Below, in pieces: positions 23,073 through 42,677 of a stretch of DNA of 64,000 nucleotides; the stretch's first letter is position 1, and each line of letters opens with the position of its first letter. The notes beneath the pieces are model-generated. The model was not told the DNA's origin. It did not search any database and saw only the letters and a program-made list of their open reading frames with translations. This stretch comes from Kofleriaceae bacterium. GTDB lineage: Bacteria; Myxococcota_A; Polyangia; Haliangiales; Haliangiaceae. The stretch spans positions 1 through 64,000 of the forward strand of contig CBDCCZ010000049.1 in assembly GCA_965215005.1 (NCBI GenBank), written 5' to 3'. The position numbers and the translations under genes were made by a program.

Positions 23073-23979
23073 TGGCGGCGACGCGCCCCAGCAAGCAAGA
23101 CGACCGCAGCGCGCTGTTTGATGAGCGTTTCCTCGAGAAGCTCGAGTACCTGCACATCGTCTCGCGAAAGGTTTTCTCCGGCGGTCTCCGCGCCGAGCGC
23201 CGAACGCGCAAGGTGGGCGCCGGGATCGAGTTCGCCGATCATCGCAAGTACACCTACGGCGACGATTTTCGCTACATCGACTGGAACGTCTACGGTCGCG
23301 TGGACAAGCTCCTTTTGCGGCTCTTCGAAGAGGAGGAAGATCTCTATATCTACATCTTGCTGGATTGCTCGGACTCGATGGTGCTCGGTGAGCCCCTCAA
23401 GCTCCACTACGCGATGCAGCTAGCGGCTGCGCTCATGTACGTGGGGCTTGCCAACCTCGACCGGGTCGCGCTGATTCCATTTTCCGACCGACTCCTTGGC
23501 CGACTACCGCCAGCGCGCGGCAAGAACCGCATCTTTAAGGCGTTTGACTTCTTGCGCACCTTGCCGGTCGGCGGTCGCACCGGTCTCGGCGCCTGCGCCA
23601 AAACCTTCGTGCACCAAAACAAGCGCCGCGGCTTGGTGGTGCTGATCAGCGATTTCTACGATCCCAGCGGCTTCGAAGCCGGGATCAACACCCTGCGCTA
23701 CAACAAGTTCGAGCCCTTCGTGATGCAGGTCTACGATCAACGAGAAGCCAATCCGCTGTTGCACGGCGATCTGACGCTGATCGACTGCGAGACCGGAGAG
23801 GCCAAGGACGTCACCATCTCGCGCTCGCTGCTCGAGGCCTATCGCCGCGAGCACGATAGGTACATGGGCGAGCTTGCCGATTTTTGCACCGCCCGCGCCA
23901 TTCCCTACTTCCGCACCGACACCCGCGTGCCTTTCGACGAGCTGGTGCTGCGCATTTTCCGCTCGGGAGGCTTTCTGAG

Positions 23980-23983
<4 letters not shown>
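23072..23983 (+). CDS. DUF58 family vWA-like protein
   Basis: GIEFADHRKY..GDDFRYIDWN, LDCSDSM and ISDF motifs; directly follows MoxR. Confidence 0.92.
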
Positions 23984-26260
<2,277 letters not shown>

Positions 26261-26261
26261 C

Positions 26262-28970
<2,709 letters not shown>

Positions 28971-28973
28971 CTG

Positions 28974-29573
28974 TTAGGAGGAGCGCAGGAATTCGCCGAG
29001 GCCGAGAGCGGTGGCCAGATTTCTGGCTCGACCGAGATCGAGGACGTAGACGCCGTCCTGATCGCGCACCACCTCGCTGATACCGCCGTGTTCCTGCTCC
29101 AGGGCGGTCATTAGCGCTTCGCGGCGCTCGGCTCTCCGGCCCGCTTCACTCACCATCTCGAGCTCGCGCTTTCGCACCAGCGCTTCCGCGACCACCCGCC
29201 GCAGCTCGAGCGGGTCGAACGGCTTTTCGACAAACCGATGCACCTCGCCCTCGTTGATCGCGCGCAACACGGCGTCTTTGGTACCGATGCCGGTCACCAG
29301 GATACGAATCGCGGTTGGACATTTCATCCGCGCCGCCCGCATGAGCTGATGCCCATCCATCGCTGGCATCTCGATATCCGAGAGGATCAAGTCCAGGGGA
29401 GCGCGGCCAAAGATCTCGGCGGCATCGAGCGGGCTCGTGGTGCACACGATCGCGTACTCGGGATTGGAAATTGCGCGGCGGATTGCGGCGAGCACGTCCG
29501 GATCATCATCGACGATCAAGATGCGCCGGGGACCAGCGCCTCGTTTGCTTATGCTGGCAGCCACTTGCGCCAC
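28974..29573 (-). CDS. Response regulator (receiver domain plus short helical tail)
   Basis: ILIVDDD, SDIEMP (phosphoacceptor Asp), TG and FVEKPF motifs; no HTH seen. Confidence 0.9.
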   Translation of the reverse strand: MAQVAASISKRGAGPRRILIVDDDPDVLAAIRRAISNPEYAIVCTTSPLDAAEIFGRAPLDLILSDIEMPAMDGHQLMRAARMKCPTAIRILVTGIGTKDAVLRAINEGEVHRFVEKPFDPLELRRVVAEALVRKRELEMVSEAGRRAERREALMTALEQEHGGISEVVRDQDGVYVLDLGRARNLATALGLGEFLRSS

Positions 29574-30865
29574 CCCTTTCGATCGATGCTGCGCTCGATG
29601 CGCTCGAGCTCACGGGCCAGCTCGGCCGCGGTTTGAAAGCGTTCGTCGGGTGCTTTGCGCAGAAGCCGCGCCACCACGCGCTCGAGATCCGGCGGCAGCG
29701 CTTCGTGCGGGCTCACCGGCACCGGCGCGGGCGTCTTGACCTGATGGGCGACGATCTCTCTGATCGTGGGAGCATCGAAGGGTACGCGGCCGCAGATCAT
29801 CTCGAAGAGAATGATTCCTAGCGCATAAAGGTCCGAGCGAGCGTCGGTCTCGAGACCGCGAGCCTGCTCCGGCGGCATGTAATACGGCGTGCCGAGAACG
29901 ATGCCGGGCGGGCCATCGGGCACTTCTACCGTGTTTGGGTCGGCGCTATGCGCGGCGCCAAAGTCGAGAAGCTTCACCCGTTCTTCGCCATCGACCGCAT
30001 CGAGAAAGATATTGGTTGGGGTTAGATCGCGATGAATCACGCCGGCCTCATGAGCCGCGCGAAGGGCCCGCGCCGCGCACCGCGCCAGATACACCGCCTG
30101 CCGCACTGGCAAGGCGCCTTCGGCTTCGAGCATCTCGCCTAAGCTTCGGCCATGCATCAGCTCCATGACCAAGTAGGGGCGGCCATCGGCAAGACTGCCG
30201 TAGTCGGTCACCGTAACGATGCCATCGGCGCGAATCCGCGCGGCTGCACGACCTTCGCGCATGAAGCGCCGCACGCTGTCCGGGTCCACCGTCAACAGCT
30301 CCCGCCGCAGCACCTTCATCGCCAGTTGCTTGGCCAAGAGCGTGTGCTCGACCCGGTACACGATGCCCATACCGCCGGCGCCGAGGACCTCGAGCACGCG
30401 ATACGGTCCCACCGCCGTCTGCGCGCCAAGCACGTCGGGAAGCACGCTGGTGACGCTGGCAACGTCGCCGACCTCGTCTTTGACGACCCTCACCTCCGCC
30501 CGCAGCCCATTGGCCGCCGAGCGAATGGTCACCCACACGGTCACGACAGTCGCTTCTAGGCGCATCGTGCAGCGGCCGGTGTGAGCGCCGCGCTCGAGCA
30601 GATCGAGCTCGCAGAGCAGCGCCAAGCGCGCGATCACCGCATCGCCGAGACCACCCTCGAGAATGGTCGCGGCTACTTCGCGCCGCCCGCGCTCGATGCT
30701 CACCCGGTGAGCGTCGCGGCCGTGCTTGCCAGCCTCCGGCTCGAGCCACAGCGCGGTGGCACCGCGCGCGATCGCCGCGGCCAAGACCACGTCTGTCACC
30801 TCGACGGCGTTGGCCTGCGCGGGCGGCCGATCGGAAGCGAGGATGGAAGCGGCTTCGGCGGTCAC
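29549..30865 (-). CDS. Ser/Thr kinase with N-terminal GspE/PilB-N2-like domain; probable GTG start at 30865
   Basis: GAGGMG, AMK, HRDLTPTN, DFG and GTPYYMPPE motifs; N-terminal AIARGATALWLEP...IARLALLCELDL...GR pattern. Confidence 0.85.
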   Translation of the reverse strand: MTAEAASILASDRPPAQANAVEVTDVVLAAAIARGATALWLEPEAGKHGRDAHRVSIERGRREVAATILEGGLGDAVIARLALLCELDLLERGAHTGRCTMRLEATVVTVWVTIRSAANGLRAEVRVVKDEVGDVASVTSVLPDVLGAQTAVGPYRVLEVLGAGGMGIVYRVEHTLLAKQLAMKVLRRELLTVDPDSVRRFMREGRAAARIRADGIVTVTDYGSLADGRPYLVMELMHGRSLGEMLEAEGALPVRQAVYLARCAARALRAAHEAGVIHRDLTPTNIFLDAVDGEERVKLLDFGAAHSADPNTVEVPDGPPGIVLGTPYYMPPEQARGLETDARSDLYALGIILFEMICGRVPFDAPTIREIVAHQVKTPAPVPVSPHEALPPDLERVVARLLRKAPDERFQTAAELARELERIERSIDRKGWRKWLPA

Positions 30866-30956
30866 CTCGGCAAAATCGGTCGCATCGAGGTCTTCCTTGA
30901 GGGCTTGCTGCGGCGACCGCCGTGCGGGCGCCAGAACCCGTTGCTCTACGAGAGCG

Positions 30957-32588
30957 CTAGAAGCGGTAGGCCAGGCGCAAGAAGCCCGTGGTGGTAAATA
31001 ACCCCGGTTGCTCGGCAGCCATGAGACCGACTTGTGTGGTGAGGTCCTGCAAGCCGGCGCGGAGACCGATGAGCACGAACCAATCGAGCTTGAAGCGATA
31101 GAAGCCGACGCCGCCGACGCTGATGTTGCGGACCTTGGACGTGCCGTAGCAGGTGGTGATGTCGGCGGCGTTGCAGACGGTGCCTGCGTTATCGTCTTCG
31201 CTGCGCAGATACGTCGCGTCGAGCTCGAGCTCCGCCCGGCCGTCGGCAAGCTCACGAGACGCAAACAGCCGCGCGATGTCCGAGGTCGAGCGTCGCAAGT
31301 TCTGCTCGCCCACTCCGAAGATGCGCAAGTAATCGGCGCCGAGGCGCAAGCCGGCAATGGAGCGCCGGTCGAGAACCCCGACGCTGAGCTCCGCGGACTG
31401 CGCCGCGGCGATCGTCACTGTGACGGGTTGGTTCTGTTGGTTGAGGTTGCGCTGCTCCAGCTCGATTTCTGGCCTGCGACGAATCGCGCCGCTGGTCGAG
31501 AGCTCGAAGCGCTGATCGGCAAACGCGACGCTGAGACCGAGGCGCGCGGCCTCCGAGGAGATCCGCGTCACCTCGACATTGTTTTGCACCAGCGCGTTCT
31601 GCTCAACATCCGGATCCTCGAGTCGCGTTTGCGCCTGCACGTTGAGCGTCTCGGTATCCACCCGATGCACCTGCCCCGTGAGCCGCACGTTATGACGTGG
31701 CTTGTACTGGACTCCAATCGAGGCGTTGGTGAGTCCGCGACCGCCAGCACCTTCGAGATCGATTACCGCCAGGTGATAGATATACAGGTTGTTGCTCTGC
31801 TGCCAGTAACCATTGGAGGTCACGAAGATTCGCGGCTTCTCGACGTTTCCGGTGGAGCGATCTTCGGTGCGCGGCACGATGGCGGCAGCGGCAAAGGAGC
31901 CGTAGAGTCGCTGGTAGCGATATCCAGCGCCAAGACCTCCGGTGATCGGCAACACGCGCTCGCCCGCCTCGCCCATCATGAGTGGCTCGGTCTTGGGATA
32001 GTCGTCTTCGATGGAGCGCGAGCCGCGAGTGGGAAAGAGGCCGCCAAAGCCAAAGTAGGACCACTCGGTCGAGGCACGCCGCACCACGCGCAGGCCGTCC
32101 ATCTTGACTCCAGCAACGTCGAGCAGAAACTGCCGGCCTACGTAGATGTCGGTCTTGTCGCCGCCGCGCTTGAAATAGAGCTCGCGCAGGTCGTACTCAT
32201 TGCCGCCAAACGTGCCGGACTGAAAACGCTCGTCGCCGGTTACCCGGACTCGCGCGTCGGCGTGGAGGTCGTAGCCAGCGCCGCCGATATGGCGAGCATC
32301 GAACAGCCCCCGCAGATCGGTGAAGATTCGATTGATGGGGCTGGCGTTCTCAATCTCGACATTGCCCGCGATGATCGGATCGGACAGCCGGCCCGTCTCG
32401 CGGTGCAAGAAGGTGGTCGAGGTGAGGCTTCCTTGCACGAGCGTCTCATCGACCTCGTCGGAGACTTTGTCATTGAAAAAGCGGTCGTCTTCCGCGAGCT
32501 CCACGTCCTGCGCTGCGGCAAAGCGCCCCCACCCAACGACCGCCACGATACCGACAGTCATCGCAAAGGTTGCGCGCCTCACCGGCAT
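30957..32588 (-). CDS. Putative outer-membrane beta-barrel (porin) protein
   Basis: ATG at 32588 after AAGGGAG; signal peptide ending AAA-Q; amphipathic beta-strand pattern; C-terminal FLRLAYRF beta-signal. Confidence 0.8.
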   Translation of the reverse strand: MPVRRATFAMTVGIVAVVGWGRFAAAQDVELAEDDRFFNDKVSDEVDETLVQGSLTSTTFLHRETGRLSDPIIAGNVEIENASPINRIFTDLRGLFDARHIGGAGYDLHADARVRVTGDERFQSGTFGGNEYDLRELYFKRGGDKTDIYVGRQFLLDVAGVKMDGLRVVRRASTEWSYFGFGGLFPTRGSRSIEDDYPKTEPLMMGEAGERVLPITGGLGAGYRYQRLYGSFAAAAIVPRTEDRSTGNVEKPRIFVTSNGYWQQSNNLYIYHLAVIDLEGAGGRGLTNASIGVQYKPRHNVRLTGQVHRVDTETLNVQAQTRLEDPDVEQNALVQNNVEVTRISSEAARLGLSVAFADQRFELSTSGAIRRRPEIELEQRNLNQQNQPVTVTIAAAQSAELSVGVLDRRSIAGLRLGADYLRIFGVGEQNLRRSTSDIARLFASRELADGRAELELDATYLRSEDDNAGTVCNAADITTCYGTSKVRNISVGGVGFYRFKLDWFVLIGLRAGLQDLTTQVGLMAAEQPGLFTTTGFLRLAYRF

Positions 32589-34924
32589 ATGGACTCCCTT
32601 CCATACGCATTCAACAGCAGGGCGGGCTTCCACGCGTTGGGATTGTGACACGCCGAGCACGTGACGTAGGCGGGACCGGTGTGCGGCGGCGACACGACTT
32701 GCATTGCCGAGTCGCGATGGCACGAATAGCAAGTTGGCGATAGTGCGCCAAAGCTGCCGGTCTTATGGCAGTCGTAGCATGGCAGCGTGCGGTGCAATCC
32801 AGTGAGATTGCAGCCAACCGTGGTGTGATCGAAGCGCGCTGGCGCAAATGTCCATTGGGTATGGCACTCGCCGCAGCGCGGGGACAGCGAGTTGGAGTGA
32901 ATGTCATCTTGACGATGACAATTGATGCAAAAGTTGCCCGAGCCGGCGAGCGGCCGGCTGTCCTTATGGCATCGCTCGCAGGCTAGGCGGTCGTGTGAGC
33001 CGCGCAGCGAGAAATCCCCAACGTCGTGAAGCGCCTGAATCTCAAGCCAACCTTGGGTGGTGTGGCACGTCTCGCAGTTGGTTCCGTATTGCCCAAGATG
33101 CACCTCGGGCTCGGGATGACAGCCAAAGCAGTTGGTCGGTCGTGGCTTGAAGGTGATCGACGGATGGCACTCGCTGCACTTGGTGGTCACGTGCTGGCCG
33201 GTGAGCGGGTAGTCGCTCATCGTGTTGTGGTTGAAGATGTTGTCGCCCGCTTCGGTGTGACAACGCTCGCAGGCATCCCCCAGCTTGCCGAGGTGCGCAT
33301 CGTCTTTGGCGTGACAGCCCTGGGCACTGCACGTGGTGGGGGTGCCGCTGTATTGGCGCGCGGGGTGGCAGTCGGCGCAATCGGGAACGTTCTTGTGCAT
33401 TCCCTTGAGCTCCCACTCGGTATCTTCCGTGTGGTCGAAACGCACCGCCGGCCACTGTCCAGGCGAATGACACCGCGAGCATTGATCACCCAGCGAGCCA
33501 CGATGCAGCGAGTCTTCGTGGCATCGCACGCCACACTCGGCCGGCGTTTCCTTATACACATCGTTGATATGGCACTCGGCGCATTCGACGCCTTTGTGCC
33601 CTAGCACCAACGGGAACCGCGACTTTGGTCCATGGTAGAGCTGCACGCTCTTGGCGGTGAGTGTCACTTGACCGGGGGCTTTGTGACACCGCAGACACTC
33701 GTTATCTTTGAATTCGCGGTCGTGAACGTTGGTGTGCTGATGGCAGCCCATGCAGCCGACCTTCTTGGGATCGAAACGCTCGAATTGCGCTGGGTTCTTG
33801 CCGCGATGGCACTGCCGGCACTCGATCACCGCGTGCTTCCCCGTTAGGTCGAACTGGGTTTGGCGATTGTGATTGAACACGCTCGGCTTCCAGCTCGACG
33901 ACGGATGGCACGTTGAACACTTAGGTGGCGTACCAAATGCTTTAAAGCGATCTTTATGGCGATTGTCATCGGCATGGCAGATCTCGCAGTTGCGATTTGG
34001 CTTGGTTTTGCCGAGCTTCTTGGTGTGGCACTGGTAGCAGGTGAGCTTGGCGTGCTCGCCGCCGAGCGCGAATCTTGTGCGCTGGTCGTGCTCGAAGCGG
34101 ATTTTATCGAGCGAGCGAAACTTGGGCGAATGACACCAGTTGCAATCCTTTTCGCCGAATAGGTGGCCGTCGTGAGGACTGTCGTGGCAGTTGCCGCAAA
34201 AGTCGGGGTCCTTCTTCTTCAGGTTGAACTGCGCCTTGGGATGGCACTTGGCGCAGGATACTTCCTGATGAGAGCCCTCGAGCGGCATCTCCGCGTCTTT
34301 GGGATCGTCATGATTGAAGTCGAGTTGCCTCTTGGTGGGCTTCCACACGCTTTGGGTGTGGCAGCGCGCGCAGTCCATCATCGCCTTTTTATCGAACCCA
34401 TGCGGCTCGTCGCGGTCGTGGCACGACTCACACGACTGGTCTTCACCGAGGAAGGTCCGCAGTCCCTGGACGTTGGTGTTCTTATGACACTCGGCACAGT
34501 CGGTGGCCGCATGCTTGCCTTCGAGCGGCCAGCCGGTGAGCTCATGGTCGAAGCTCTTCATGCCGCCCACTGACTTCCAGCCCATCAAGTCGTACCCGCG
34601 CCCCTTATGCTCTAGATGGCAGGTCTCGCACTTGCGATTGCGCACTTTGGCCGATGCGTGGAAGCCCTCGCCAGCGCGGATGCGCGCCCTTAGATCGTTG
34701 TGATCGTGGCAGTCGAGGCACTTGTCATTGGACAGTCCCTTGCCGCCGGTGTGGCAATCGTTGCAGTGGTCCTGGCCGTCGATCGATGCATGCGAACGAC
34801 TCAGATCGCCCGGCGAGCTGCGCAAGAAGTCATCTTGCGCCCACGCCACGCGCTGGGCCGAGAGCACCGCGACCACCACGACCGCCGCGGCGACCGCTAT
34901 TAGACAAACGCGCCTACGGTACAT
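32579..34924 (-). CDS. Exported multiheme cytochrome c with 30 heme-binding motifs
   Basis: Signal peptide (AWA-Q). Counted by hand: 28 CxxCH, one Cx3CH and one Cx4CH. Confidence 0.95.
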   Translation of the reverse strand: MYRRRVCLIAVAAAVVVVAVLSAQRVAWAQDDFLRSSPGDLSRSHASIDGQDHCNDCHTGGKGLSNDKCLDCHDHNDLRARIRAGEGFHASAKVRNRKCETCHLEHKGRGYDLMGWKSVGGMKSFDHELTGWPLEGKHAATDCAECHKNTNVQGLRTFLGEDQSCESCHDRDEPHGFDKKAMMDCARCHTQSVWKPTKRQLDFNHDDPKDAEMPLEGSHQEVSCAKCHPKAQFNLKKKDPDFCGNCHDSPHDGHLFGEKDCNWCHSPKFRSLDKIRFEHDQRTRFALGGEHAKLTCYQCHTKKLGKTKPNRNCEICHADDNRHKDRFKAFGTPPKCSTCHPSSSWKPSVFNHNRQTQFDLTGKHAVIECRQCHRGKNPAQFERFDPKKVGCMGCHQHTNVHDREFKDNECLRCHKAPGQVTLTAKSVQLYHGPKSRFPLVLGHKGVECAECHINDVYKETPAECGVRCHEDSLHRGSLGDQCSRCHSPGQWPAVRFDHTEDTEWELKGMHKNVPDCADCHPARQYSGTPTTCSAQGCHAKDDAHLGKLGDACERCHTEAGDNIFNHNTMSDYPLTGQHVTTKCSECHPSITFKPRPTNCFGCHPEPEVHLGQYGTNCETCHTTQGWLEIQALHDVGDFSLRGSHDRLACERCHKDSRPLAGSGNFCINCHRQDDIHSNSLSPRCGECHTQWTFAPARFDHTTVGCNLTGLHRTLPCYDCHKTGSFGALSPTCYSCHRDSAMQVVSPPHTGPAYVTCSACHNPNAWKPALLLNAYGRESICR

Positions 34925-34937
34925 GGCTCGAGCCAGT

Positions 34938-37130
34938 CTACATCGAGTACTGGAAGGCAACCCAGATGTGGACCGCAGAGATGAGCACCATGATGACAGT
35001 AAACGGCACGTGCACCTTCTTCCATGAGTGTAGGAGAAGCTGCGCGCGCGGAACCAACACCCTGCGGCGCTCGATCAACATCGCTCGTCCAAGACGCCCG
35101 ACCAGCTCGCGACGTACGCGGCGCGGCGCCGATGTACCACCAATGCGCGCGCGCCTGCGAAGCCAACGCACAGGTCGTTTGAGGTCCTGGAGAATGATCC
35201 ACATCAGCGCGCCCATGATTCCCGAGCTGTCGGCAACCTGCTGCGCATTGGCGCGGTGCGCTTTGAGCTCCGCTTCCGCTTCCGCCGCGGCCGCTGGATG
35301 GTCGGCGCGAAGGCGCGCGAACGCGCGCTGGATTTCCAGCTCCTCGAGCTCGCGCCCATTCAAAAGGTCGGGCACCTGCGTATAGAGATAGCGGCCGATG
35401 ACACCGGACACCACGACGATGACCATGCTCCAAAACGCCGCCGACACCCAATTGTCGAGCTTGAGTGCCGAGTGCAGCAAGATGAACAGCGGACCGACGG
35501 TGCCGGCCATCATGTGAAAGTCGAACCACATCGTGTTAGACGCCAGCCACCGAAAGGCTCGCATCCGCCGAAACATCGGATAGATCGCCGCGATGGCCAT
35601 GAGCCCGGTGCCGAAGTAACCGCACCACACGGCGAGCTCCATGCCCGCGCGATAATCGATGCGCTCGACCAGCGCCGCCATCGGCATCCCGGCAAAGCGC
35701 GGGTCGTGACGCAGCATCAGATACTGCAGCGAGCTCTTGGGTACATACAGCCTGAGCGCGATCTCGAGGAGCGCGAGCATCCAAGCCGCGAGACCAATGC
35801 CCCACATGACCACGGGGCCGACGCGGCCACGGCGAGTCTTGGCCAGGCCGGCATCGCGAACGCCGACGCCGCGGGTGAACGGCTCGGTGGGCAAGACCTC
35901 GACGTCGCGCAGCGACACTTCTTGGTCGTAGCCCGACTTGGCAACTGCCATCTGCGCTTGCGAGCGCTCGCGAAACAGCTCACCGGCGTCGATCTCGATG
36001 AGCGCGCCGGTTGGACACGCCGAAACACACGCCTGATCGCGGTAACTGGCGCAGTGGTCGCACTTGTTGGCAACGCGCCTGGGACGGGCGATCCGCGGCT
36101 TGCCGGCGCCAAAGGCCAGTGAGCCATCCGCCTCGAGGCGCAGCTTGAAGTCCTCGCGATACGTCGGATGCTGAGGATCTTCGACGTCGACCATCTCGAT
36201 GGCGTGGTACGGACACGACTGGGCGCACAGCGTGCAACCGGTGCACGAGGCCTCGTTGATCACCACCTGCTCGAGCTCTGGATCGTAGCGAATCGAGTCG
36301 TACTCGCAGGGATCGACGCAGCGCTGATCGACGCAGGTGCGGCACGTGAAAACGAAATCCAGCATGCCGAGCTGATAGCCGCCCAAGGTGAGCCGCCGAG
36401 AGCCGTAACGCTCCTCGCAGGCTTCTTCGCATTGCTTGCAGTCGATACAGCGATCGAGCTGGCGCACGCGCACGATCGGCCCTGCGACCGAGATGCCGTG
36501 ACGCACGAAGAAGTCGAGGATCTCCTGCTTGACGCCGGTGATGTCGTGCAGCCGCTGTCGGCTGATGGTGATCGCGCGGCGAAAGCGCGCTTCGAAAAAC
36601 GGAAAGCGCACCGCGAACTCGGCCAGCGTGCTCGGCGCGATGGCCGCGAGCTCGGTGGGCGCGGTGGTGAAGAAGGCGGTCGGGAAGCCGTCGGCAGCAC
36701 TCACCGCGGCGCTGTTGAACAGATCACCGGGAAGAAAGGCAGCGACGTTTTTCTTCGCGACCCGCGCCAAGGCCGGCGGTCGCAAGAGCGACAGCTCTTC
36801 GCGCTGTTTGGCGCTCATCGTCGCGATGCGCTCCTGCAGAGCTCGGCGCTCAGCGAGCTCTGCGCCATCGAAAACGCCTGCCGCTACCTGGCCTTCAGCA
36901 ACGAACAGCACCGGCGCCAAGCCGTTGAATCCGGTGAGCGGGTCGGCAATCAAGTGATCCCGTTCGTAGACGGCGCGACGAATGCCACCGGAGGCGATCG
37001 CCGCGGAAAGATCAGCATTGGGAATGCCGTCGAAGATGTTGAGGCGGCGGAGCTGCGCGTAGTCCGCTTCGGCCGGTGCTAGCATGGAGCGCTCGCGGGA
37101 CGCGCCGCTGTCTACAACCAATTCGCTCAT
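34938..37130 (-). CDS. Fusion of a degenerate cNMP-binding domain, a 4x[4Fe-4S] ferredoxin domain and a di-heme b (ferric-reductase-like) membrane domain
   Basis: CIDCKQCEEAC, CRTC..RCVDPC, CTGCTLCAQSCP and CDHC..CVSACP motifs; about 5 TMs with two H-x13-H pairs; start inferred at MSELVV. Confidence 0.88.
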   Translation of the reverse strand: MSELVVDSGASRERSMLAPAEADYAQLRRLNIFDGIPNADLSAAIASGGIRRAVYERDHLIADPLTGFNGLAPVLFVAEGQVAAGVFDGAELAERRALQERIATMSAKQREELSLLRPPALARVAKKNVAAFLPGDLFNSAAVSAADGFPTAFFTTAPTELAAIAPSTLAEFAVRFPFFEARFRRAITISRQRLHDITGVKQEILDFFVRHGISVAGPIVRVRQLDRCIDCKQCEEACEERYGSRRLTLGGYQLGMLDFVFTCRTCVDQRCVDPCEYDSIRYDPELEQVVINEASCTGCTLCAQSCPYHAIEMVDVEDPQHPTYREDFKLRLEADGSLAFGAGKPRIARPRRVANKCDHCASYRDQACVSACPTGALIEIDAGELFRERSQAQMAVAKSGYDQEVSLRDVEVLPTEPFTRGVGVRDAGLAKTRRGRVGPVVMWGIGLAAWMLALLEIALRLYVPKSSLQYLMLRHDPRFAGMPMAALVERIDYRAGMELAVWCGYFGTGLMAIAAIYPMFRRMRAFRWLASNTMWFDFHMMAGTVGPLFILLHSALKLDNWVSAAFWSMVIVVVSGVIGRYLYTQVPDLLNGRELEELEIQRAFARLRADHPAAAAEAEAELKAHRANAQQVADSSGIMGALMWIILQDLKRPVRWLRRRARIGGTSAPRRVRRELVGRLGRAMLIERRRVLVPRAQLLLHSWKKVHVPFTVIMVLISAVHIWVAFQYSM

Positions 37131-37151
37131 CTCGCGGCTTTTCGAGCCTCC

Positions 37152-37805
37152 ATGTTGAACTTCGATAGACGGCACCGCGGCGGAAGCCAAGCAAGCCTCG
37201 CGCCCAACCCCTCTAACCGCCAATCAGGATGCAATTCTAGCAGCTTGAGCACCGATGATGGGAGACCCCCAGACGCCAATCGGGGTCCTCGCCCCCAGCG
37301 ATGGCGGGCCCTGGCGGTGGTCCTCGGACAGCTCGCGCTCACGTGCGTCTTGCTCGCACCTGGCACTGCCGCGGCCGAGGAGCTGGCCTCCACCGCCAAC
37401 CTCGATGGCACCTACATCGGGCTCGGCCCGGTCGCCAGCGCACTCTGGATCGACGGCGAAGTCGATGGCGCGTTTGGCGGCGAAGCGAGCCTTCTCCGCA
37501 TTCGCGAGCACGCCGCCCTCACCGCCGTGGGCGCGTGGGTGGGCGGCTACAAGTACAGTGAGCGCAACGGTGGTCGGGTGTGGCTCGAGCTGCTCTTCGG
37601 CATCAGCACGCCGCTGGTGCCGATCGGAGTGGCGCTGGGGCCCACCATCGAGCCACGGGAGCTCGGCGCGGCTCGCGTAGGCGGTCAGCTGTCCGTGTGG
37701 CTGTTCGCGGGGGCGCTGCCATATGTGCGCGTGGCGACTTTCGATCGGGGGCCAACGGTGTTAGAAGTGGGACTTCGGGTCACACTCCCGGCGATTGAAT
37801 TGTGA
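37152..37805 (+). CDS. Hypothetical exported small beta-stranded protein; true start probably later (e.g. GTG 37317)
   Basis: Hydrophobic signal-like segment ending AAA-E, followed by Gly/aromatic-rich amphipathic strands. Confidence 0.6.
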
Positions 37806-37912
37806 TCTCATCCACGTCGTCGTGGTGACGGAATGGATGGGCAGCAGAAAGATCGCGATTCCGCTGTTGACAGAAATCCCGTCTGGGGATACCTCGTATT
37901 TCGCTGTTTATT

Positions 37913-37989
37913 CGGGGCGTAGCGCAGTCTGGTAGCGCGCCTGGTTCGGGACCAGGAAGCCGGAGGTTCAAATCCTCTCGCCCCGACCA
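37913..37989 (+). tRNA. tRNA-Pro (anticodon CGG)
   Basis: CGGGGCG/CGCCCCG acceptor stem, anticodon arm cctgg-ttCGGga-ccagg, GGTTCAAATCC T-arm and encoded CCA. Confidence 0.97.
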
Positions 37990-38034
37990 TTTTTTTGATG
38001 GGATAGTTTTGCGCCCGAGGCCGAGGGGAGACGG

Positions 38035-38664
38035 GTGGGTACGCCGGTTCCGTCGCGAGAGAGGGAGATCCATCAGCTCAACATCCTAGTCGTCGATGAC
38101 GACCGGGACGTCTGCGAGTACCTCCAGGACTTCTTGACGTCCGAGGGGTACATGGTGACGGTCGTCAACGACCCCACCCGCGCGCTGGAGGCGATGAAGA
38201 GCGACGAGTTCCACGTGGTGGTGCTCGACTTGATGATGCCCAAGCTTTCCGGCATCGATCTGCTCACCCAGATTCGCCAGGTCGATGACGATATCGCGGT
38301 GATCATCCTCACCGGCTATCCCAGCCTCGAAACAGCTACGTCCTCCATCGAGCACGACGTCTCGGCCTACATCCGCAAGCCGTTCACCATCAATGAGTTC
38401 CGCGACGCGATCGTTCGCATCGCGAAAAAAAAGGGACTCATTCTGCGCCGCGAGGACGAGCTGCACGCGACCATCGGGCGCAGCATTCGCGAGCTACGCA
38501 AGGCGCGCGGCCTCACTCTCAAGCAGATGTCGCGCCGCACCAAGCTGTCGGTGTCGCTGCTTTCGCAGATCGAACGTGCCGAGTCTTCGGCATCGGTGTC
38601 GTCGCTCTTCAAAGTCGCCACCGCTCTCGACGTTCGCATCACCGAGCTGTTCGGGCCGTTCTAA
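38035..38664 (+). CDS. Response regulator with XRE-family HTH output domain
   Basis: REC domain (VVDDD, LDLMMP, YIRKPF) followed by [16 protein letters not shown]...SLLSQIER. Confidence 0.92.
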
Positions 38665-38718
38665 ACCCTTGCGCTAGTCGCGCCGCAGGTGGCCCAGCGC
38701 GCCGCGCGGCGAAGGCGC

Positions 38719-39387
38719 CTAGCGAGCCGCTTCGGCGCGGCGGCGCATTTCGGCGATTACGCTAGCGTAGTCGCTGGCGCCGAAGATGCCGCTGCCCGAG
38801 ACCACCACGTTGGCTCCCGCTGCAACTACCTGCGCGACGTTTTCGGTCTTGATCCCGCCGTCGACCTCGATGTCGATCTCGAGCCCTCGCCGATCGATCT
38901 CCGTGCGGAGCGCGGTGATCTTGGGGAGCACCGCATCGATGAACGCTTGGCCGCCAAAGCCGGGATTGACGCTCATGATGAGCACCATGCTGAGCTCATC
39001 GAGCACGTACTGAAGTCCCTCGAGCCCCGTCGCCGGATTGATGACCACGCACGGCTTCTTGCCCAACGCCGCGATCGCTTGAATGCTGCGGTGCAAGTGC
39101 GGGCTCGCTTCGACGTGCACTCCGATAACGTCGGCACCGGCCTCGGCAAACGCCTCAAGGTAGCGATCGGCGTTTTCGATCATCAAGTGCACGTCGAGCG
39201 GCTTGTCGGTCGCGGCGCGGACCGCCTTCACCACCGCAGGACCGATGGTGATGTTGGGAACGAAGTGGCCGTCCATGACGTCGACGTGAATGTAATCGGC
39301 GCCGGCCGCGGTGATTGCCGATACTTCGTCGGCGAGGCGACCAAAGTCGGCGCTGAGGATGGAGGGGGCGATGCGGATCGGTCTCAC
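38719..39387 (-). CDS. rpe: Ribulose-phosphate 3-epimerase
   Basis: [32 protein letters not shown] and EVDGG motifs. Confidence 0.98.
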
Positions 39388-39684
39388 GCGCGCACTCTAG
39401 CCACTGCCGCGGCACGATAACAGCCGCGAACTGCGATCAAGGTATCAATCCCACCGCGCGCGCACCGCGCCGCCGCATCCTGGCGTTCGTCATGGATGAT
39501 CTCGTGGCGGTGCCATCGCCAGAAGCCTTCACCGCAAGCCGTTGCCGCCCCCCGACAGGTGAGTGGTTGCGGCAACGGGAATGCGGCCGACCGCTGTGCG
39601 TCCGACGCCCTGCTCCTAGTGGTCTCTCCAAAGCCAACGCCTTCGCCACCTATGGTGACTGTTGCTTTCGCCGTAAACCACTCG

Positions 39685-40483: not shown

Positions 40484-41750
40484 TTACGCGCGAAGTCGCG
40501 CCGCATAAAACGCATCGGCTTCGTGGCGGTGTGGCCAGAGCCGCAACTCGGCTTCGAGCTCTAGCTGCGGCGCACGCTTGCGCAGCGCCGCAATCTGCTC
40601 GGGACCTTCCTTGGCCGTGAAGGTGCAAACGCTATAGAGGAGCACGCCGCCGGGATGAATGAGACCAGCCGCCACCTCCAAGAGCTGCGCTTGCAGCGCG
40701 GCCATGCGACCAACGTCTTCATAGCTCACGCGCCACTTGGCTTCTGGATGCCGGCGCAACACCCCCAGGCCGGTGCACGGCGCGTCGAGCAGAACCACGT
40801 CGAAGCGACCAAGAGCGGTTGCGGCGGCGGGGTCAGTGAAGTCGACGAGGCGAGGCTCGAGCCCGGTCACGCCCATTCGTGCGGCGGCCGCCTGTAGCCG
40901 CGCGAGCTTGGCGGCGGAAACGTCGGCGCAAACGATGGTTGCCTCGCCAGCGAGAGCGGCGAGATGCAGCGCTTTTCCGCCTACGCCAGCGCAGGCATCG
41001 AGGATGCGCATCCCCGCCGCCGGCGCCGCCAGCTCGGCAATCATCTGCGCACCGACGTCCTGCACCGTCCAGAGCCCTTCGGCAAAGCTCGGCGCCCGAT
41101 CGGGCGAGCCGAGCCCTCGCACCAGCAGCGCCGCCGGCGCGTGCGGCGAAACGTTGATGTCGATGCCCGGATGCTCGCGTTGCAGACGCGCCGCCAGCGC
41201 ATCGCGCTCGATGCGCCGGGTATCGACGCGAATCGCCAGGCGCGGCGTCTGCGCAAACGCCGCCGTAGCGGCAGCCAGCTCCTCATTCGGCAGCGCCTGG
41301 CCAAGCTGTCCAAGAAGCCACGCCGGCATGCTGTGGAGCGCGGCGAGGTGCTTGCGCAGATTGCTGATCGGCGGCAGCGCCGGCTCGCCGGTGGTCGCAA
41401 GCCGACGCAGGAGGCCATTGACGAAGCCCGCCAGCTTCTCACCGCCAAGCTCGCGGGCTGCGGCGGCTGCGTCATCCACCGCGGCGTGGGCCGGCACGCG
41501 GTCCAGAAGCAGCAGCTGATACGCAGCCACCCGCAGCACCGTGAGCACCTTGCGACTGGTGCGGCCGCGCCCCAGCAGCGGCTCGAGCGCGCGGTCGAGC
41601 CGGCTGCGATGGCGCAAGACGCCATAGACCAGCTCGGTGGCGAGCGCGCGGTCGCGGTCGCTGAGCGAGGTCGTGGCGAGCTCCTCATCGAGCACGCTCG
41701 AAGCGAAGGCGCCTTGCGACTCGACGCGCTCGAGAACCCGTCGCGCTAGC

Positions 41751-41764
<14 letters not shown>
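40484..41764 (-). CDS. rsmB: 16S rRNA m5C967 methyltransferase RsmB (NusB domain plus MTase); TTG start inferred
   Basis: DRALATELVYGVLR, FVNGLLR, DACAGVGGK, DAPCTGLGVLRRHPE and YSVCT motifs; directly downstream of fmt. Confidence 0.93.

Positions 41765-42677
<913 letters not shown>

Follow-up and report, generated by a model that had tools for sequence, protein, structure and literature searches.

A candidate electron conduit across both membranes, encoded by a conserved three-gene cluster of Haliangiales myxobacteria

We analyzed a 64,000-nucleotide stretch of DNA (the window) from a Kofleriaceae bacterium of the order Haliangiales (GenBank assembly GCA_965215005.1, contig CBDCCZ010000049.1, positions 1 to 64,000). 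Three genes lie head to tail on its minus strand, and we call them g1, g2 and g3 in the order of transcription. They encode an inner-membrane protein with Fe-S clusters and a putative di-heme b domain, a secreted cytochrome c with 30 heme sites, and a predicted outer-membrane beta-barrel. Together they make a candidate route for electrons through the cell envelope. The genes and their domains are as follows.

34938..37130, minus strand: g1, ATG at 37130 and stop at 34938; a 730-aa inner-membrane protein
36501..37073, minus strand: cyclic nucleotide monophosphate (cNMP)-binding-like domain of g1, CRP/FNR type, residues ~20-210, without an evident phosphate-binding Arg
35997..36461, minus strand: four-cluster ferredoxin domain of g1, residues ~224-378
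34941..35825, minus strand: five-transmembrane-helix domain of g1, residues 436-730, putative di-heme b
32579..34924, minus strand: g2, a secreted cytochrome c of 781 aa whose 30 heme sites form ten c7-like triheme units
30957..32588, minus strand: g3, a 543-aa predicted outer-membrane beta-barrel of ~22 strands, plug-less

A gap of 13 nt (34925-34937) separates g1 from g2, and g2 overlaps g3 by 10 nt (32579-32588). When positions 28500-38500 were scanned, no terminator-like site was found between the three genes; the whole scan gave 10 terminator-like sites with 6.6 expected and 0 promoter-like sites with 1.7 expected. An earlier note on this DNA, made from the letters and a list of open reading frames (ORFs), had described the same strand, gap and overlap, and these match the ORF list and the translations. 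It had also read g1 as lacking a signal peptide and carrying four Fe-S Cys motifs, g2 as having a signal peptide and 30 heme motifs, and g3 as having a signal peptide and a terminal LAYRF. The translations, a motif script and, for the end of g3, the conservation of its YRF bear this out.

The g2 protein starts with a signal-peptide-like segment (MYRRR..., ending in AWA before QDD). Its 30 heme sites comprise 28 CxxCH motifs, one CGVRCH (CxxxCH) and one CSAQGCH (CxxxxCH), and they are spaced in ten groups of three. The Pfam model Cytochrome_C7 matched g2 over five stretches (6.4e-30), and by sequence g2 is built, like the polymeric c7-type cytochromes, of tandem triheme c7-like domains. When 34 g2 sequences (orthologs 56-69% identical) were aligned, no C-H dyad of the 30 varied, and of the 30 first Cys, 28 were invariant and two were kept in at least 90%. 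Having 30 motifs in 781 residues with every dyad invariant, the arrangement is not due to chance. Simple motif counts gave 28-30 in 65 of 66 cytochrome ORFs downstream of g1 relatives, the remaining ORF ending at a contig edge; counts under 30 probably reflect variation in the spacing of the first Cys. An ORF with 29-30 heme motifs also stood between g1 and g3 in all 17 separately fetched ortholog loci. The protein contains 64 His and 10 Met, which suggests that most of its hemes are bis-His ligated. Two additional Cys, C705 and C780, are invariant, and the C-terminus reads ..S[IV]C[RQ] in 63/63 complete ORFs. Among the ten units, unit 9 is the most conserved (mean identity 0.83) and unit 10 the least (0.53). 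No solved chain matched g2 by sequence at E <= 0.01. The ten hemes of MtrA cover ~8 nm and the twelve of GSU1996 cover ~12 nm; thirty hemes would therefore span ~24-30 nm, on the order of the periplasm plus the outer membrane. The fixed number of hemes would fit a constraint on length.

The g3 protein also begins like a signal peptide, ending in AAA before QD, and closes with ...RLAYRF. Among 38 g3 homologs, Y541, R542 and F543 are kept in at least 90%, and C472 and C480 are invariant. An AlphaFold2 (AF2) model built with 38 sequences had a mean predicted local distance difference test score (pLDDT) of 81.6 and a predicted template-modelling score (pTM) of 0.75. It is all-beta, with ~22 long strands, and just ~20 residues precede the first strand, so a plug domain is absent. 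Searched with Foldseek, the model matched ushers, AlgE, Occ porins and TonB-dependent receptors (E 1.9e-10 to 3.7e-7, TM-score at most 0.49). VIA returned mostly the barrels of TonB-dependent transporters (Z 12.6-17.3, 371-428 residues aligned), together with smaller porins and ushers, and MtrB (6r2q_B) came at rank 34 (Z 13.7, root mean square deviation 7.0, 389 residues). These models and matches agree with the barrel proposed earlier. By sequence, g3 had no Pfam family at E <= 0.01 and no NCBIfam family. In the ESM Atlas it falls into hypothetical clusters drawn from Myxococcota only, with BBP2_2 as the closest named family (0.92), and its homologs are all annotated as hypothetical, their named sources being mostly Kofleriaceae metagenome-assembled genomes (MAGs). 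The model and the searches make g3 a predicted outer-membrane barrel that forms a sequence family by itself.

The earlier note had proposed modelling the barrel together with the cytochrome. We predicted the complex of g3 residues 28-543 with g2 residues 436-781 from separate alignments, the g2 chain being heme-free. The interface score ipSAE was 0.73 (runs 0.73, 0.71 and 0.78), and the best of three controls gave 0.00. Among solved complexes, 116 of 157 attain a value of 0.73, as do 2 of 215 mismatched pairs; with the custom alignments used here, this comparison is only rough. The runs share at least 61% of their contacts, and the partner pLDDT is at least 72. The g2 side of the interface consists of triheme units 9 and 10 (residues 634-781). 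The g3 side takes in alternate residues of most strands, among them 58/60/62/64, 288/290/292/294 and 343-353, together with the loops 72-85, 121-129, 311-343 and 465-484. This alternate-residue pattern places the g2 chain within the lumen, and the model thus supports the last two triheme units of g2 sitting inside g3. The pairs with the lowest predicted error bring g3 C480/481 together with g2 729-731, 705, 778 and 780. Invariant Cys from g2 and from g3 thus meet in this region, where a disulfide might join the two subunits. By the standard topology of outer-membrane proteins, loop 466-483 of g3 is extracellular, and the C-terminus of g2 would therefore point outward, as in MtrA, an orientation read from the list of contacts rather than from coordinates.

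The first of the three proteins has a more composite structure. The AF2 model of g1, made with 32 homologs, has a pLDDT of 70 and falls into three parts. The N-terminal domain is modelled mostly at pLDDT 73-92, falling to 60 at residues 111-120. Foldseek matched it to CRP and other cyclic nucleotide-binding (CNB) domains (E 1.6e-4 to 2.9e-3), and VIA to CRP/FNR and other CNB domains (Z 8.2-11.5, 103-145 residues aligned). A distant relative of g1, P0375, passes the Pfam model cNMP_binding (29.2 bits, cut-off 27.5). On inspection of the sequence, the Arg that binds the cyclic phosphate was not seen in the g1 domain. A stretch in this region, RRLNIF, was considered as a Tat signal and rejected: it starts the cNMP-like fold, and no hydrophobic region lies behind it. 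Four Cys motifs lie in the middle part of g1, beginning at residues 228 (CxxCxxCxxxC), 263 (CxxCx4CxxxC), 296 (CxxCxxCxxxC) and 357 (CxxCx7CxxxC). Together they hold 16 Cys; one more Cys stands outside them. All 16 are invariant in an alignment of 32 orthologs. Orthologs of g1 are 58-70% identical. Pfam gave 4Fe-4S dicluster models (Fer4_7 at 9.8e-11 and other Fer4 models) and a weak DUF4405 match. NCBIfam gave partial matches of the HydN, DmsB and NrfC types, all far under their cut-offs; the best equivalog, HydN, scored 46.2 bits with a cut-off of 260. Judged from these matches and from the I-IV spacing of its Cys motifs, g1 has the four-cluster ferredoxin fold of the DmsB/HydN/NrfC type and lies outside every named enzyme subunit family.

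The third part of g1 lies in the membrane. The AF2 model places helices at 437-462, 498-520, 532-553, 569-589 and ~705-729. A hydropathy scan (window of 19 residues, threshold 1.5) gave four regions, 436-463, 499-517, 560-583 and 705-730, and missed the helix at 532-553. Two H-x13-H pairs lie on these helices, H539/H553 on the third and H707/H721 on the fifth, and the four His are invariant both in the 32 orthologs and in 60 distant relatives of 21-64% identity. A further pair, H611/H625, falls within a soluble insert rich in Arg, and the two His are not conserved together. This insert, ~110 residues of helix at ~590-700 between the fourth and fifth transmembrane helices in the AF2 model, is cytoplasmic by its charge. 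Loops rich in Arg and Lys (431-435, 521-527 and 650-690, as read from the sequence) point to an N-in, C-out topology because of where they lie, and with this charge distribution H539 and H707 lie towards the cytoplasmic side of the membrane, H553 and H721 towards the periplasmic side. We infer that the His are placed in the geometry required for two stacked b hemes.

The domains that the earlier note had assigned to g1 thus stand, including about five transmembrane helices with two H-x13-H pairs. It had overlooked the N-terminal cNMP-binding-like domain of ~200 residues, detected by Foldseek and VIA, and the helical Arg-rich insert that the AF2 model sets between the fourth and fifth helices.

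To place the membrane domain, g1 residues 420-730 were scored against 1.84 billion representative proteins, which gave 1936 matches at E <= 0.001, 810 at <= 1e-10 and 42 at <= 1e-30. Many of these relatives are stand-alone proteins of ~285-320 aa. Aligning 60 of them showed the invariant positions to be the four His, two Gly and one Trp. Among 26 relatives scanned with Pfam, 14 had no family and the others matched Fer4 models; some gave matches to DUF4405, Ferric_reduct or Ni_hydr_CYTB below threshold. Across the 60 members, NCBIfam gave one stray match only. The relative P0350 scored 26.6 bits with Ferric_reduct, whose cut-off is 28. In the window's own genome, Ferric_reduct (PF01794) had no match and DUF4405 a single one, below threshold and elsewhere. 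A fold search with the whole g1 model returned rows dominated by the cNMP-like domain, the few transmembrane rows being unrelated helical proteins. As a side observation, P0284-P0393, homologs of the g1 membrane domain, represent a widespread, unnamed membrane family of ~290 aa with four invariant His and the same type of cytoplasmic helical insert as g1. A preprint (bioRxiv 10.1101/2024.03.13.584918) reports a DUF4405 protein purified with heme b and describes the family as MsrQ/PepSY-like. The earlier note had read g1 as a di-heme b domain of the ferric-reductase/MsrQ type joined to a DmsB-like ferredoxin. The invariant His, the weak DUF4405 and Ferric_reduct matches, the heme b precedent and the Cys spacing all support that. 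An MsrQ/ferric-reductase-type di-heme b domain is a reasonable reading of g1, and formal membership of the family fails the Pfam cut-off.

We then considered how widely the three genes occur together. Matches to g1 were found in 140 of 147 genomes of the order and matches to g3 in 136; in genomes at least 90% complete, the figures are 76/79 and 77/79. Two of the 147 genomes (G434 and G435) are unpublished and both match, and leaving them out gives 138/145 for g1 and 134/145 for g3. Across the phylum, g3 was detected in 10 of 401 sampled genomes: nine, our own included, belong to the order, and one outside it gave a weak partial match. For 95 of 123 listed ortholog-class g1 matches, g3 lies on the same contig (93/121 without G434 and G435), and in all 95 it is on the same strand, 2353-3412 nt downstream. 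Most of the remaining 28 g1 matches are within a few kb of a contig end in fragmented assemblies. A tblastn search of 80 loci around g1 relatives in species-representative genomes found g1 in 80, g2 in 73 and g3 in 64, and all three were present in each of the 40 loci with full flanks. The 80 loci come from MAGs titled Kofleriaceae, Haliangium, Haliangiales, Myxococcales, Myxococcota, Deltaproteobacteria or Proteobacteria. Proteins named from cultured Haliangium ochraceum are 60% identical to g1 and 67% identical to g2. Judged by these matches, the trio is conserved in nearly every searched genome of one order of myxobacteria, which bears on the earlier note in that a lack of co-occurrence would have spoken against its proposal.

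A second cluster, paralogous to this one, occurs in many genomes of the order; its proteins (g1', g2' and g3') are 43-44%, 55-57% and 34-36% identical to those of the window. The paralogous cytochrome g2' likewise has 30 heme motifs in 4/4 fetched loci. In the same four loci, an oxidoreductase with 2x[4Fe-4S] and Pyr_redox_3 (5.2e-41) adjoins g1' on the same strand. The paralogous cluster (L145 = G418:C2:488000-507999, L146, L147 and L148) is larger than the operon of the window. On one strand it carries the FAD/NAD(P)H 2x[4Fe-4S] oxidoreductase and g1', and on the diverging strand an SH3_3-domain protein, the 30-heme cytochrome and the barrel paralog. Three of the four loci extend far enough to show what follows the barrel: another cytochrome, ~1200-1400 aa by stop-to-stop ORFs, in which 31-32 heme motifs were counted. 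The L145 copy of it has Cytochrome_C7 and GSu_C4xC__C2xCH matches.

This larger cluster is absent from the window's genome, which has a stand-alone copy of the oxidoreductase (G000:C1:38662-40179) with 52% identity to a paralogous-cluster enzyme. Orthologs of the stand-alone copy in four other genomes are 69-72% identical to it, and the oxidoreductases of the paralogous clusters are 53-58% identical to it; three of the latter were assigned to the cluster by position and the fourth (G245) is presumed to belong there. The split between stand-alone and cluster enzymes mirrors that between g1 and g1'. Fusions point the same way. Two of the 26 scanned relatives of the membrane domain, P0326 (1008 aa) and P0375 (977 aa), carry in one chain Fer4, then Pyr_redox_3 (FAD/NAD(P)H), then the transmembrane domain, and P0375 alone has the cNMP_binding match at its start. 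A member of the P0375 cluster bears the bare name "NAD(P)-binding domain-containing protein". Searched against the 401 phylum genomes, P0375 matched 146, only through the common Fer4 and Pyr_redox part (query ~200-675), and no full-length fusion of the P0375 type was seen in them. Because the oxidoreductase adjoins a g1 paralog and is fused into distant relatives, NAD(P)H is a likely source of electrons. By analogy, it would feed g1 through the stand-alone oxidoreductase.

Porin-cytochrome pairs such as MtrAB carry electrons across the outer membrane. The known conduits of this membrane receive their electrons from quinol dehydrogenases and from carriers that diffuse through the periplasm. The g2-g3 pair resembles MtrCAB of Shewanella, PioAB and MtoAB in that a multiheme cytochrome is sheathed by a large barrel from an adjacent gene, with the C-terminus of g2 in the lumen of the model; a surface cytochrome is missing from the operon, as it is from PioAB and MtoAB. 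The parts are different, however. g3 lies outside MtrB_PioB, having no Pfam match, and has ~22 strands rather than the 26 of MtrB, and the family (PF11854) had no match in the whole genome, which is 92.8% complete. g2 has 30 hemes in c7-like units, unlike the decaheme MtrA/DmsE, whose model TIGR03508 gave 26.5 bits (cut-off 192.2) over residues 615-764 only. The inner-membrane partner is g1, encoded in the operon, rather than a quinol dehydrogenase of the CymA type.

Geobacter porin-cytochrome clusters (OmbB-OmaB-OmcB and ExtABCD) likewise combine a periplasmic multiheme protein with a porin-like one, and c7/c3-type domains are typical of them. They include an outer-surface lipoprotein cytochrome, which the g1-g3 operon lacks, and they use octa- and dodecaheme proteins with periplasmic shuttles rather than a single 30-heme protein. 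Polymeric Geobacter cytochromes of the GSU1996 type share the tandem triheme c7-like units of g2, whereas g2 has ten units, a fixed 30 hemes and a genetic tie to a barrel and an inner-membrane module. NADPH oxidases (NOX), ferric reductases (FRE), MsrQ and the DUF4405, PepSY-like and FezC proteins resemble g1 in having two His-pair helices that would stack two b hemes, with donor domains in the cytoplasm. NOX and FRE carry the FAD/NAD(P)H domain on the chain; in Pfam searches g1 has none, although its relatives P0326 and P0375 do. The group also differs from g1 in that g1 has five transmembrane helices, four [4Fe-4S] clusters, a cNMP-like domain and Pfam scores below cut-off, and the acceptors in the group are oxygen, iron or MsrP, the proposed acceptor of g1 being a multiheme c-type wire. 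In TmcABCD and HmcABCDEF of sulfate reducers, periplasm and cytoplasm are likewise connected electrically, through a multiheme cytochrome c in the periplasm, a cytochrome b in the membrane and an Fe-S protein in the cytoplasm, but these complexes run inward and have no outer-membrane barrel, and no CCG/HdrD-type or NarI-type family was among the Pfam matches of g1 at E <= 0.01. As the earlier note had suspected, the cluster maps onto no characterized complex in these comparisons. Listings and abstracts of the literature on multiheme cytochromes, porin-cytochromes and extracellular electron transfer in Myxococcota, Haliangium and Kofleriaceae contained no description of it. Three features seen in the sequences set the system apart: an Fe-S/di-heme-b entry with a cNMP-like domain, a cytochrome of fixed 30 hemes, and the family of the barrel. 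We predict a conduit of the porin-cytochrome kind whose entry resembles NOX and avoids quinone, no part belonging to the MtrAB families.

Our reading is that the trio forms a conduit taking electrons outward from the cytoplasm across both membranes, to which we give a probability of roughly 0.6. A cytoplasmic reductant would load the four [4Fe-4S] clusters of g1. Its most likely source would be NAD(P)H, by way of a separate FAD/2x[4Fe-4S] pyridine-nucleotide oxidoreductase, for which G000:C1:38662-40179 is the candidate, and the cNMP-binding-like domain may gate this entry. Electrons would then cross the inner membrane over two stacked b hemes, one held by H539 and H707 on the cytoplasmic side and the other by H553 and H721 on the periplasmic side, as the invariant His and the topology suggest. 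This step would follow the logic of NOX, ferric reductases and MsrQ, without a quinone step. In the periplasm, the N-terminal end of g2 would accept the electrons and pass them along its 30 c-type hemes, a chain that could bridge the periplasm alone. At the outer membrane, residues 634-781 of g2 would lie inside the lumen of g3, as the complex model supports, with the C-terminus at the presumed extracellular loops. There an exposed heme could reduce an acceptor outside the cell: oxygen, humic material and metal oxides come into question, as does a partner cytochrome. NOX-type electron paths from the cytoplasm to the outside dissipate the membrane potential, and we therefore favor a role in reducing something external over one in energy conservation.

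A more specific version, which we hold to be possible yet doubtful, makes the trio a trans-envelope counterpart of NADPH oxidase: NAD(P)H in, no quinone pool, a 30-heme "ruler," gating by the cNMP-like domain, and reduction outside. Just as tentatively, the system might be core to an oxygen-respiring, largely predatory order, with external reduction rather than energy conservation as its job. Its targets, an equally speculative point, might be oxygen, reduced to superoxide for attack or for the oxidation of organic matter, or Fe/Mn oxides for nutrition.

Several observations weigh against an outward conduit. The support is computational throughout, and neither the direction of flow nor the acceptor is set by any result here. 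The good score of the complex may partly echo the solved MtrCAB, and it was obtained with a heme-free chain and with only residues 436-781 of g2 on offer. The Fe-S part of g1 is poorly modelled by AF2, at low confidence. Its membrane part alone scored 23.2 bits with DUF4405 (cut-off 26.7), and the profile of the transmembrane family gave only coiled-coil noise, at E >= 0.14, against solved chains. A di-heme b domain could also house a quinone site. The operon contains no donor gene, the oxidoreductase being linked to it by analogy with the paralogs, and apart from the trio, the window shows no heme-rich ORF that might encode an outer-surface cytochrome. The genome has three genes for heme-copper oxidase subunit I and 14 ORFs with at least three heme motifs, the largest being g2. 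Since the organism respires oxygen and has few multiheme cytochromes, it is not a typical metal reducer. The earlier note had thought extracellular electron transfer unexpected in a myxobacterium; for the lineage Haliangiales, with its heme-copper oxidases, this stands, and for the phylum it does not, as extracellular electron transfer occurs in Anaeromyxobacter according to PMC11495043.

Other explanations draw on the same observations. The wire could be as proposed while g1 acts as a quinol dehydrogenase, analogous to CymA, CbcL or ImcH, passing electrons from menaquinol through the di-heme b domain to g2 and using its cytoplasmic Fe-S and cNMP-like domains to sense the redox state or to regulate. 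Many di-heme b membrane proteins bear quinone sites, many relatives of the g1 membrane domain are stand-alone proteins of ~290 aa without an Fe-S domain, and the missing donor gene would suit such an enzyme. Yet no quinone-site motif was identified in g1, four invariant clusters are costly for a mere sensor, and both the FAD/NAD(P)H fusions and the oxidoreductase adjoining the paralog point to cytoplasmic input, so we regard a quinol dehydrogenase as unlikely. Electrons could also run inward, with external Fe(II), reduced humics or a cathode oxidized at the surface and the cytoplasmic Fe-S clusters reduced, as in Tmc and Hmc. The architecture is reversible, PioAB and MtoAB run inward, and the oxidases of the genome could serve as sinks. 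For such donors, however, delivery onto low-potential [4Fe-4S] clusters at the negative side of the membrane would be uphill, a path to oxygen needs no cytoplasmic Fe-S clusters, and the NAD(P)H/FAD partner and the fusions resemble a NOX-type exporter; inward flow seems to us quite unlikely.

There might be no surface conduit at all, g2 being a periplasmic electron store or detoxifying reductase and g3 a co-transcribed ordinary porin or assembly factor. That g3 matches generic barrels only, that the operon lacks a surface cytochrome and that multiheme genes are few in the genome would all agree with this. It fits poorly with the strict gene order and spacing in 95/95 pairs and the 10-nt overlap, with the plug-less barrel predicted around the C-terminal units of g2 when controls gave 0.00, and with the 31-32-heme cytochrome that the paralogous cluster adds just after its barrel. 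We consider it improbable.

An outward conduit of this kind would suggest a different design from the known ones, with a cytoplasm-facing Fe-S/heme-b entry, a cytochrome reaching from membrane to membrane, and a barrel unrelated by sequence to MtrB. Its conservation extends to proteins named from cultured Haliangium ochraceum, which makes the proposal testable at the bench. If it is true, extracellular electron transfer would extend to aerobic soil and sediment myxobacteria, and the trio would be a candidate apparatus for reducing substances outside the cell or making superoxide. With only three genes, it would also be a compact module with which to connect cells to electrodes. The ~290-aa four-His family would gain a predicted function if the conduit works as proposed.

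The genome itself (6.2 Mb, 62 contigs, 92.8% complete) has other heme-rich ORFs. One locus (L150 6414-9418, G000:C18:135413-138417) encodes a 15-heme cytochrome with c7/c3 and MtrC/MtrF-like matches, followed by an ORF without a family that ends in ...GRF. From their sequences, the two may be a second, smaller porin-cytochrome pair. An ORF at G000:C32:60415-61875 (minus strand) has 13 heme motifs (Cytochrome_C7), and another at G000:C6:73159-75207 (plus strand) has seven, with cbb3-type, class I cytochrome c and MtrC/MtrF-like matches.

Two genes upstream of g1 run in the opposite direction.

37152..37805, plus strand: small divergent conserved ORF, beta-rich, secreted; without a Pfam family, start codon uncertain
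38035..38664, plus strand: response regulator with receiver and XRE-type helix-turn-helix domains (Pfam); candidate regulator

The small ORF begins 21 nt from g1, and its actual start codon probably lies some way downstream of that point. Within it, one stretch resembles a signal sequence, and the C-terminal part is rich in beta structure. By tblastn it is kept in 39 of the 40 full-length loci, and it may be associated with the operon. The response regulator is present in 38 of the 40 (74-90% identical in the 12 listed) and is better conserved than the conduit genes. On its conserved position alone, it is a candidate regulator of the operon.

On the other side of the cluster, a Ser/Thr kinase gene (29549-30949, minus strand) could begin 8 nt past the g3 stop and is followed by a response regulator (28974-29573, minus strand). 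The kinase is kept in 4 of the 40 loci, and only two loci have both genes just after g3. Beyond them, at 23884-28970 (plus strand), comes a cluster of the aerotolerance (Bat) type, a series of VWA-domain proteins in which BatA-like and GATase1-like parts occur. Its 902-aa member recurs near the conduit genes in 10 of the 40 loci. An ORF at 38689-39420 (plus strand) was rejected as spurious, the opposite strand at 38719-39387 encoding ribulose-phosphate 3-epimerase (3.9e-84). That gene, rpe (38719-39387, minus strand), forms with rsmB (40484-41884) and fmt (41751-42677) a housekeeping block beside the cluster.

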